Part shown: positions 12,276 through 13,189 of the stretch, one piece after another
How the letters are laid out: each line of letters begins with the position of its first letter
How positions within the stretch are numbered: the stretch's first letter is position 1
Source of the DNA: Octopus vulgaris
Taxonomy: Eukaryota
Assembly: GCA_951406725.2 (NCBI GenBank)
Contig: OX597828.1
Span: 20,956,001-21,020,000 of the forward strand
DNA length: 64,000 nucleotides
Direction: 5' to 3'
Notes under the pieces: generated by a model
The model's database searches: none
Told to the model about the DNA's origin: nothing
The model's input: only the letters and a program-made list of their open reading frames with translations
Position numbers and translations under genes: made by a program

Positions 12276-12982
12276 CCCTTTAGCATTTAAACCAGCTATA
12301 TCCGGCCCTAAATATCCTACCAGTTCTATATGCAAACTGACCAGATCTGGCTTCTCACATTTACCCTACAATGTCATTCTAAAAATAGACAGACACATCA
12401 TCAAAATCTTGAAGCTATGAGGTAATACAAGATTAATTAAGAACAATGTGAATAAATGACTTGCAAACAACTGCACATGCAAGTGCTACCAGTCAAAAAC
12501 TCTGCATACCGGAAGCCAGCAAGTGTATGGGGTCATCAGGAGAGAATGCATGCCATTTCGGGGCCTACCTCTCGACGGCATCAATGCGCACCGGCCCCCC
12601 TCACTGATATGAGGCCCCGCTTGCTAGATCAACTGGTTATCAAATAAAGCTCAATATTCTTCTAGCCATTGCTCATTGTCTCTTTTTAACCATATCCAGT
12701 GGCTAGCCTTCTCCACTGTAGTTTGGATATCGATCATGGTGGTATTGACTTTACGATGAGTTAGGCCTGACAATAACAACAGTCGTCTCACACTGTGTCC
12801 AACAAACCCTTTACATCCAACTTCGATTGGAAAATGCTCTGCAAAATGCTCTGCTTTCCAGCCTGTGTCTTCACATTCCTCGAGGAGGTTTACATAACAG
12901 TCAATCTTTCGAGCCCGAGCGGCATCCATGTTGTCTTCATGAGGAACCGTTAACTTGACAGAATAATCTGAATACTAAAGGA
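12276..12982. mobile_element. piggyBac-like MITE interrupted by a HERO-type LINE fragment
   Basis: Ends TTAT|CCCTTTAGCATTTA and TGAATACTAAAGGA|TTAA are imperfect inverted repeats with TTAA-like flanks. Confidence 0.55.
12460..12955 (-). mobile_element. 5'-truncated HERO/NeSL-type non-LTR retrotransposon (restriction-like endonuclease C-terminus and 3' UTR)
   Basis: LTVPHEDNMDAARARKIDCYVNLLEECEDTGW...PIEVGCKGFVGHS...VEKASHWIWLKRDNEQW* (stop 12651-12653) fits the ELTVPxE...RK..KY...EVGxxGF...WxWxxR pattern of HERO-like RLE elements. Confidence 0.8.
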
Positions 12983-13145
12983 TTAACAAAGACATTTGGA
13001 TTTGGTCTATCTTTGAGTTGGGGCTGCAAGTTTCAGCCAGACATCATCGAAGGGAACATAAGGAGTGAGCTGATATCATTTAGTAGGTGAACCAGGAATT
13101 GAACCCATGACATTAAGATCATGAGTTGAACACCCTGGGACTCAT

Positions 13146-13189
13146 ACAGATCCTACACTTTGATCTCAGCCAAAAGGCTGAGAAGCGAT
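13146..13189 (-). pseudogene. U2: U2 snRNA 5' fragment (about nt 1-44)
   Basis: ATCGCTTCTCAGCCTTTTGGCTGAGATCAAAGTGTAGGATCTGT versus the conserved U2 5' end ATCGCTTCTCGGCCTTTTGGCTAAGATCAAAGTGTAGTATCTGT: 3 mismatches. No Sm site or 3' half. Confidence 0.9.

Follow-up and report, generated by a model that had tools for sequence, protein, structure and literature searches.

The 3′ region of a truncated retrotransposon copy in the Octopus vulgaris genome contains the nucleotides of a hammerhead ribozyme core, in an order that differs from that of hammerhead types I-III. This raises the question of whether the RNA could fold into an active ribozyme, and what self-cleavage might contribute to the replication of the element. 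The locus lies within a window of 64,000 nt (the whole stretch of DNA that was analysed), and all the features described below are read from its minus strand. According to a preliminary description, the 3′ UTR here is of HERO type and contains a hammerhead core that is conserved and pseudoknotted and falls outside types I-III. Each of the segments that it listed is present where it was placed, including C17 at 12574, and relatives of the element carry the same fold.

The fold and its host element

The window copy is an aged, truncated insertion. It is ~505 nt long (12959-12453) and 5′-truncated, comprising the last ~100 codons and the 3′ region of a HERO-type RLE LINE of the family termed F1. 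The C-terminal end of the ORF occupies 12651-12959 (RLE domain, with the peptide runs LTVPHED, EVGCKG and WIWLKR in that order, and the stop codon at 12653-12651), and the fold begins 23 nt 3′ of the stop codon. The whole fold covers 12516-12627, and is bounded by a closing stem in which 12627-12620 is paired with 12523-12516. Inside this, the 5′ strand of helix A (12615-12618) is paired with 12532-12529, directly 3′ of A9, and hairpin H (12599-12614) abuts helix A on one side and helix II on the other. The 5′ strand of helix II (12593-12598, with G10.1 at 12598) is partnered by 12565-12560, and that of helix T (12586-12592), the helix that braces stems I and II, by 12551-12545. The segment 12574-12579 consists of the 5′ strand of helix III (12579-12575) and C17 (12574), so that by analogy with hammerheads the predicted cut lies between 12574 and 12573. 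It is followed by the 5′ strand of helix I (12573-12569) and a 3-nt linker to helix II (together 12566-12573). The next segment (12552-12565) contains the 3′ strand of helix II (12565-12560), G12-A13-A14 (12559-12557) and the 3′ strand of helix III (12556-12552, CpG-decayed here), and the last (12529-12551) contains the 3′ strands of helix T and of helix I (12544-12540), CUGAUGA (12539-12533) and the 3′ strand of helix A (12532-12529). A tail without poly(A) (12453-12515) leads from the fold to the ragged end of the copy, the putative site of internal priming, about +120 from the cut.

The decay of CpG in the window copy follows from the sequence GAAAC in 24 of 30 aligned family copies (counted by eye), where the window copy has GAAAT. 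In the family consensus a 5-bp helix III (GCCGU/ACGGC) is followed directly by a 7-bp helix T (GGUGCGC/GCGCAUU). The 7-bp ATGCCGT/ATGGCAT pairing that had earlier been taken as helix III is indeed present in the window copy, but it is in part a product of CpG decay. The suggestion that helix II is replaced by a junction has to be given up; GGGGCC and GGCCCC form helix II, including the G10.1-C11.1 pair, with the 5′ strand supplied from upstream.

A descriptor of the fold gave exactly one match when both strands of the window were scanned, while Rfam gave no match at the motif, nor in 14 related loci. Nested folding of the window copy by RNAfold gave z = -0.63, with 43 of 200 shuffled sequences folding equally well, pseudoknots being outside the model that RNAfold uses; the z values obtained (-0.63, -1.71, -2.12 and -2.51) are uninformative for a pseudoknot. 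For F1, RNAfold predicts a competing nested fold in which CUGA is buried.

The F1 repeat has 2,862 first-look candidates in its own 2.8-Gb genome, and the 39 other scored matches are 88-91% identical. Young copies have a single frame of up to 1,175 codons that encodes an N-terminal zinc finger, RT, CCHC and a C-terminal RLE. The RT is Pfam RVT_1, and among PDB entries R2 proteins match best. Signature runs in the F1 RT are common to HERO-1_BF, HEROTn and HERO-1_SP, and are not found in the Utopia, R5 and R4 rows of a published alignment that was compared by eye. Membership of the HERO clade is well supported by these sequences, as far as an alignment compared by eye can show. The flanks of insertions are unrelated and often TA-rich, i.e. 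there is no strict target site, matching the description of the HERO clade (PMC4640811). Identity as a Penelope-like element was rejected, as the C-terminus is RLE-type and the RT R2-like, in place of GIY-YIG and a telomerase-like RT. Separate from the LINE copy, 13027-13189 of the window contains a 5′ fragment of U2 snRNA (~45 nt; Rfam U2, 45.3 bits) and then a tRNA-like stretch. Utopia-like targeting through this upstream fragment was also rejected; it lies ~190 nt beyond the 5′ end of the copy, and is absent from all other fetched loci.

Conservation of the helices and the catalytic core

Relatives were selected by protein alone, without regard to the RNA. In the same genome a protein search gave five families, all of which have the same arrangement with differing helix sequences; this includes helix A, which is present in all five. 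The order of strands in each is A, hairpin H, II, T, III, cut, I, short linker, II′, GAAA, III′, T′, I′, CUGANGA, A′. Metagenome contigs scanned by protein alignment yielded 80 loci, and the full fold was found by a strict descriptor in 41 of these, compared with 2 of 3,550 dinucleotide shuffles and with no match when 451,689 bases of coding and reverse-strand sequence were scanned as controls. Downstream DNA was sufficient in 72 loci, the remaining eight having <100 nt. Among those with enough downstream DNA were 31 strict-negative loci; 15 of them passed a relaxed test that 0 of 310 shuffles passed, and 16 failed. Several of the failures are visibly truncated or decayed, and ~7 are without any trace by eye. 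We note that at L189, L230, L240, L243, L247, L257 and L258 no fold is visible within 800 nt of the end of a HERO-like ORF; possibly these are sub-lineages without the ribozyme, or interrupted copies. A search of viral contigs gave two spurious phage loci and nothing further. The check on other families that had been proposed at the outset is thus borne out: UH, GAAA and CUGANGA are kept, with covarying helices, in the five families of this genome and in 41 of the 80 metagenome loci.

Pairing was measured in 31 non-redundant carriers. Loci scoring <30 (L180, L181, L183 and L192) and near-duplicates of >80% identity were dropped, and L185 and L196 fall outside the set because they were not recovered by the strict rule for helix A. 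In a structure-blind MAFFT alignment of the carriers 89.0% of the cells of helices II, T, III and I pair, compared with 62.4 ± 1.4% after shuffling, although part of this pairing is by construction because the counted carriers were preselected for at least 4 bp in five helices. The same alignment contains 148 double changes, compared with 43.7 in the shuffled controls, and slid controls gave 38-45% pairing. In 28 of the 31 carriers helix T is 5 bp or longer, though the search did not demand it. Helix A adjoins H in 30 of 31, and H adjoins II in 30 of 31.

A canonical helix II would be formed by the strand after CUGANGA and the strand before GAAA. These pair at the level of chance (43.2% compared with 41.5% after shuffling), with the first pair present in 2 of 31 carriers, and a canonical or dimer helix II was rejected; since the two strands do not pair, neither monomer nor dimer can form it. 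Helix II is instead retained with a 5′ strand from upstream, and there are two extra helices (A and H) at the A9/G10.1 step. In our model A, H, II and the core stack would form a four-way junction inserted at this step. The A9/G10.1 step of a viroid hammerhead tolerates a single extra base (PMC3705267). There is a kink-turn signature between helices III and T in 20 of the 31 carriers; it is absent in the family of the window copy, which has a 6-nt bulge there.

When the search was made with the helices alone, requiring no core letters, CUGANGA, GAAA and UH were present in 33 of the 34 matches scoring at least 36, the single exception having AAAA in place of GAAA. N7 and N17 are variable, as in hammerheads. 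All 31 carriers have G at position 10.1, although it is not linked to A9. The 3-8 pair is U3···A8 in L185 and L196 (one family) and U3···G8 in the related L180 and L182, i.e. few independent events; natural hammerheads exhibit covariation from C3-G8 to U3-A8 (PMC3088659). In a subfamily of F2 (L307-L329) the triplet is GUU instead of GUA, as expected for a tolerant N17.

Judged by its sequence, the fold is a real and catalytically complete variant of the hammerhead with strong covariation. By analogy, it very probably self-cleaves after the GUH triplet. It had initially been regarded as either a ribozyme or a structure recognized by the RT; catalysis is the likelier function, and recognition by the RT the less likely because of the catalytic signatures.

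Tandem units and the role of cleavage

Copies end raggedly between +118 and +126 nt past the predicted cut (70 ends), without poly(A), and the sequence past the copy ends leads into the 5′ UTR of a following unit. The 5′ end is reached in six of 15 long loci; each of these six is a partial tandem with a length of 1.08-1.53 units (the unit being ~3,737 nt). The unit-to-unit junction is identical in five of these, with one substitution in the sixth. No array of two full units is present among the 15 long loci. When the junction loci are taken together (30, including the six long tandems), 25 continue upstream through the cut, five start 3′ of the cut and none at the cut. The motif is probably not at the end of the RNA, as the copies are partial tandems and end ~120 nt 3′ of the cut. 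In eight of the 30 junction loci the unit is a mini-unit with an internal deletion and both ends retained. Such mini-HERO units (L268, L276, L277, L278, L280, L284, L285 and L286, with run X1) still have the fold and the 5′ UTR, form partial tandems in their turn, and by likeness might be termed retrozyme-like non-autonomous derivatives. In ten of the 80 metagenome contigs the start of the ORF comes immediately 3′ of the fold, and the assembly of L185 is circular; collapsed assembly may contribute to tandems of this kind.

Traces of cutting were sought in the copies. For F1, 2 of 8 matches started at the cut, the counts for two control positions being 0 of 2 and 0 of 7; for F2 the count was 2 of 23 at the cut and 2 of 9 at a control position. 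Over five patterns there were four starts at two cut positions and two at three control positions, a difference that is not significant. In 172 copy alignments indels do not clearly cluster at the cut, where one deletion starts; another ends 1 nt before it. Single suggestive starts or scars are found in L110, L334, L254 and L212 (a contig beginning 1 nt after the cut). Four contig sets of putative RNA origin cover the cut and the junction, where contigs cannot show RNA ends, and in one run of putative RNA origin a 1,283-nt contig spans both and returns to the 3′ region. We note that L198:1-6631 contains two head-to-tail units that are only 69% identical, each with an intact fold, and that the switch between them is 3′ of the first fold and not at the cut. 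The joint could be a cross-family template switch, a targeted insertion or an assembly chimera.

Two further RNA features were observed. In every tandem inspected (L091:2118-2290, L198:2975-3110, L204, L216, L223, L196 and L200), short hairpins with GAAAGA/GAGAGA-type loops form an array of 4-5 in the 5′ UTR that begins 10-25 nt past the copy ends and is a candidate for a protein-binding site that sets the point of internal priming. Near the start of the ORF a second conserved element consists of a C-run/G-run helix and, crossing it, a covarying helix of 5-7 bp around a hairpin with a GAGA tetraloop (17 distinct matches, at L091:2311, L198:3151, L200:3539, L204:3001, L216:1963 and 12 more). 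It is pseudoknot-like, and a possible signal for cap-independent translation.

We propose that tandem transcripts would be cut by the fold at the GUH triplet to generate unit RNAs, and that the two cleavage products would stay paired and then be ligated, or be bridged by a template jump. Reverse transcription would start internally ~120 nt past the cut and roll through the joint, giving partial-tandem copies. Reverse transcription must cross the cut site, and therefore the template is either uncut tandem RNA or RNA that was cut and then re-joined or bridged. In F1 the two predicted cleavage products are linked by ~30 bp (closing stem, A, II, T and III), so that the ends of a unit RNA would be kept in the active site by its own pairing; this linkage, together with the need to regenerate copies that are longer than the unit, would favour a closed or jump-bridged template. 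On balance we prefer the full scheme of cutting, closing and rolling, with its template-jump versions included, and regard rolling copying as evenly poised. A more specific form of it is tentative. According to this, HERO LINEs would be autonomous elements replicating by way of a self-cleaved, self-ligated circular RNA; the four-way-junction hammerhead would cut and close the unit, the protein would bind the 5′ UTR hairpin array and prime internally, and rolling-circle reverse transcription would produce partial tandems and mini-elements.

The ribozyme might instead cleave away from the copying path, trimming host read-through transcripts, making an uncapped 5′ end for the message (as does the HDV-like ribozyme of R2) or limiting expression, with new copies arising from uncut tandem RNA that is primed internally. 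Uncut read-through RNA is a strong rival as template. Most junction loci (25 of 30) read cleanly through the cut, where there is no clear scar or pile-up of starts, and source loci of ~1.5 units exist. There is a precedent in the Penelope element PAc, which has a hammerhead, partial tandems and internal priming; the main insertion substrate in vitro was the uncut RNA, and ribozyme mutants left insertion unaffected (PMC11167929). Against this, 5′ truncation should shorten the upstream part at each generation unless its length is restored by a circle or a jump, two-full-unit arrays are missing from the 15 long loci, and the ~30 bp joining the products would be well suited to re-joining. Overall, cleavage that plays no part in copying seems to us rather unlikely.

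In hammerheads the A9/G10.1 step adjoins a metal site. The chain is opened just here, and the structure might be a scaffold that derives from a hammerhead but has lost the ability to cut, or needs the help of protein to do so, and serves mainly as a binding site for the protein of the element. Cutting would moreover part the ORF from the end of the copy, and the PAc hammerhead required protein for cutting (PMC11167929). Yet elements whose C-terminal proteins are just 30-46% identical to F1 (27 carriers) have retained every catalytic letter, UH, G10.1 and the 3-8 pair, none of which a simple binding site would require, and we consider a scaffold improbable. Far less probable still is chance pairing in a tail rich in G and C runs, or the misreading of an ordinary type-SGC or dimer hammerhead. 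In favour of chance, the helices of F1 are runs of G and C, and the window copy has an ordinary folding energy (z = -0.63); however, chance does not accord with the recovery of the fold in 41 of 80 loci against 2 of 3,550 shuffles, with the core present in 33 of 34 helix-only matches or with the covariation in the MAFFT alignment, and a misread type-SGC or dimer fold would require pairing between the strands after CUGANGA and before GAAA, the first pair of which occurs in 2 of 31 carriers. In our view this explanation is already refuted by the covariation, as far as sequence can do so.

Relation to known ribozymes and elements

The fold has the characteristics of the hammerhead class, i.e. the core letters, stems I, II and III with covariation, the G10.1-C11.1 pair and the C3-G8 tertiary pair. 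Assignment to types I-III, which are circular permutations of a three-way junction free of core pseudoknots, was rejected, as the order is cleavage site-GAAA-CUGANGA (S-G-C) and there is no Rfam match. This order is common to the type-SGC hammerheads (HRIMA-1 and variants; Eckert et al. 2023), which, in the accessible part of that paper, also resemble the HERO fold in having a short linker between stems I and II (3 nt in F1), a helix bracing these stems and a pseudoknotted core; cleavage in vitro was shown for a type-SGC order in which the linker, as in F1, is 3 nt long (PMC10085705). In the same part of the paper block C (CUGANGA and the stem II strand) is treated as unbreakable, with CUGANGA running directly into stem II, whereas in the HERO fold it runs into helix A, and the stem II and bracing strands come from upstream (PMC10085705). 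The accessible text reports type SGC from metatranscriptomes, with none in the genomes of known organisms, whereas the HERO fold is found in animal LINEs (PMC10085705). Thus the HERO fold has the S, G, C order of blocks, the short linker and the bracing helix, and lacks an intact block C; because CUGANGA is split from the stem II strand it is akin to type SGC, but outside the type as defined. Of the undescribed topology that had been suggested, the order UH-GAAA-CUGANGA was already published; the new part is the opening of the chain between A9 and G10.1 and the addition of two helices there. Literature searches of open papers found no published ribozyme for HERO, nor this hammerhead wiring. 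A CUGANGA block that can be interrupted contradicts the published assumption, and accounts for the failure of pattern searches and Rfam to detect such RNAs. It also places a non-circularly permuted ribozyme, so far from environmental RNA, in animal genomes in many copies.

Zebulon of pufferfish, which we take to belong to the HERO clade, is similar in that one ORF encodes zinc finger, RT, CCHC and RLE, in its lack of a fixed target and in its tandem structure. Bouneau et al. in 2003 reportedly described it as a partial tandem array. The fold would supply a cause for the tandem structure, and the old puzzle of why HERO and Zebulon occur as partial tandems without poly(A) becomes testable. The R2 5′ HDV-like ribozyme is also carried by an RLE LINE, the 5′ end of the RNA being made by self-cleavage of a longer transcript; from the accessible parts of the sources, it differs in belonging to another class of ribozyme, in its location at the 5′ end of the element and in that R2 primes at the 3′ end of its RNA (PMC13580325, PMC7650587).

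Penelope-like elements and non-LTR retrozymes, as described in the accessible parts of two reports (PMC11167929; bioRxiv 2026.07.22.740005), have in common with HERO a hammerhead, partial tandems and an internal start of reverse transcription, together with short non-autonomous derivatives and a proposed circular RNA. They combine a GIY-YIG enzyme with type I hammerheads, whereas HERO combines an RLE-type LINE with a rewired full hammerhead. If the circular model is true, a LINE of the R2 group would copy itself in the manner of a Penelope element or a retrozyme, and this would have a bearing on the evolution of LINEs and on tools derived from RLE retrotransposons.
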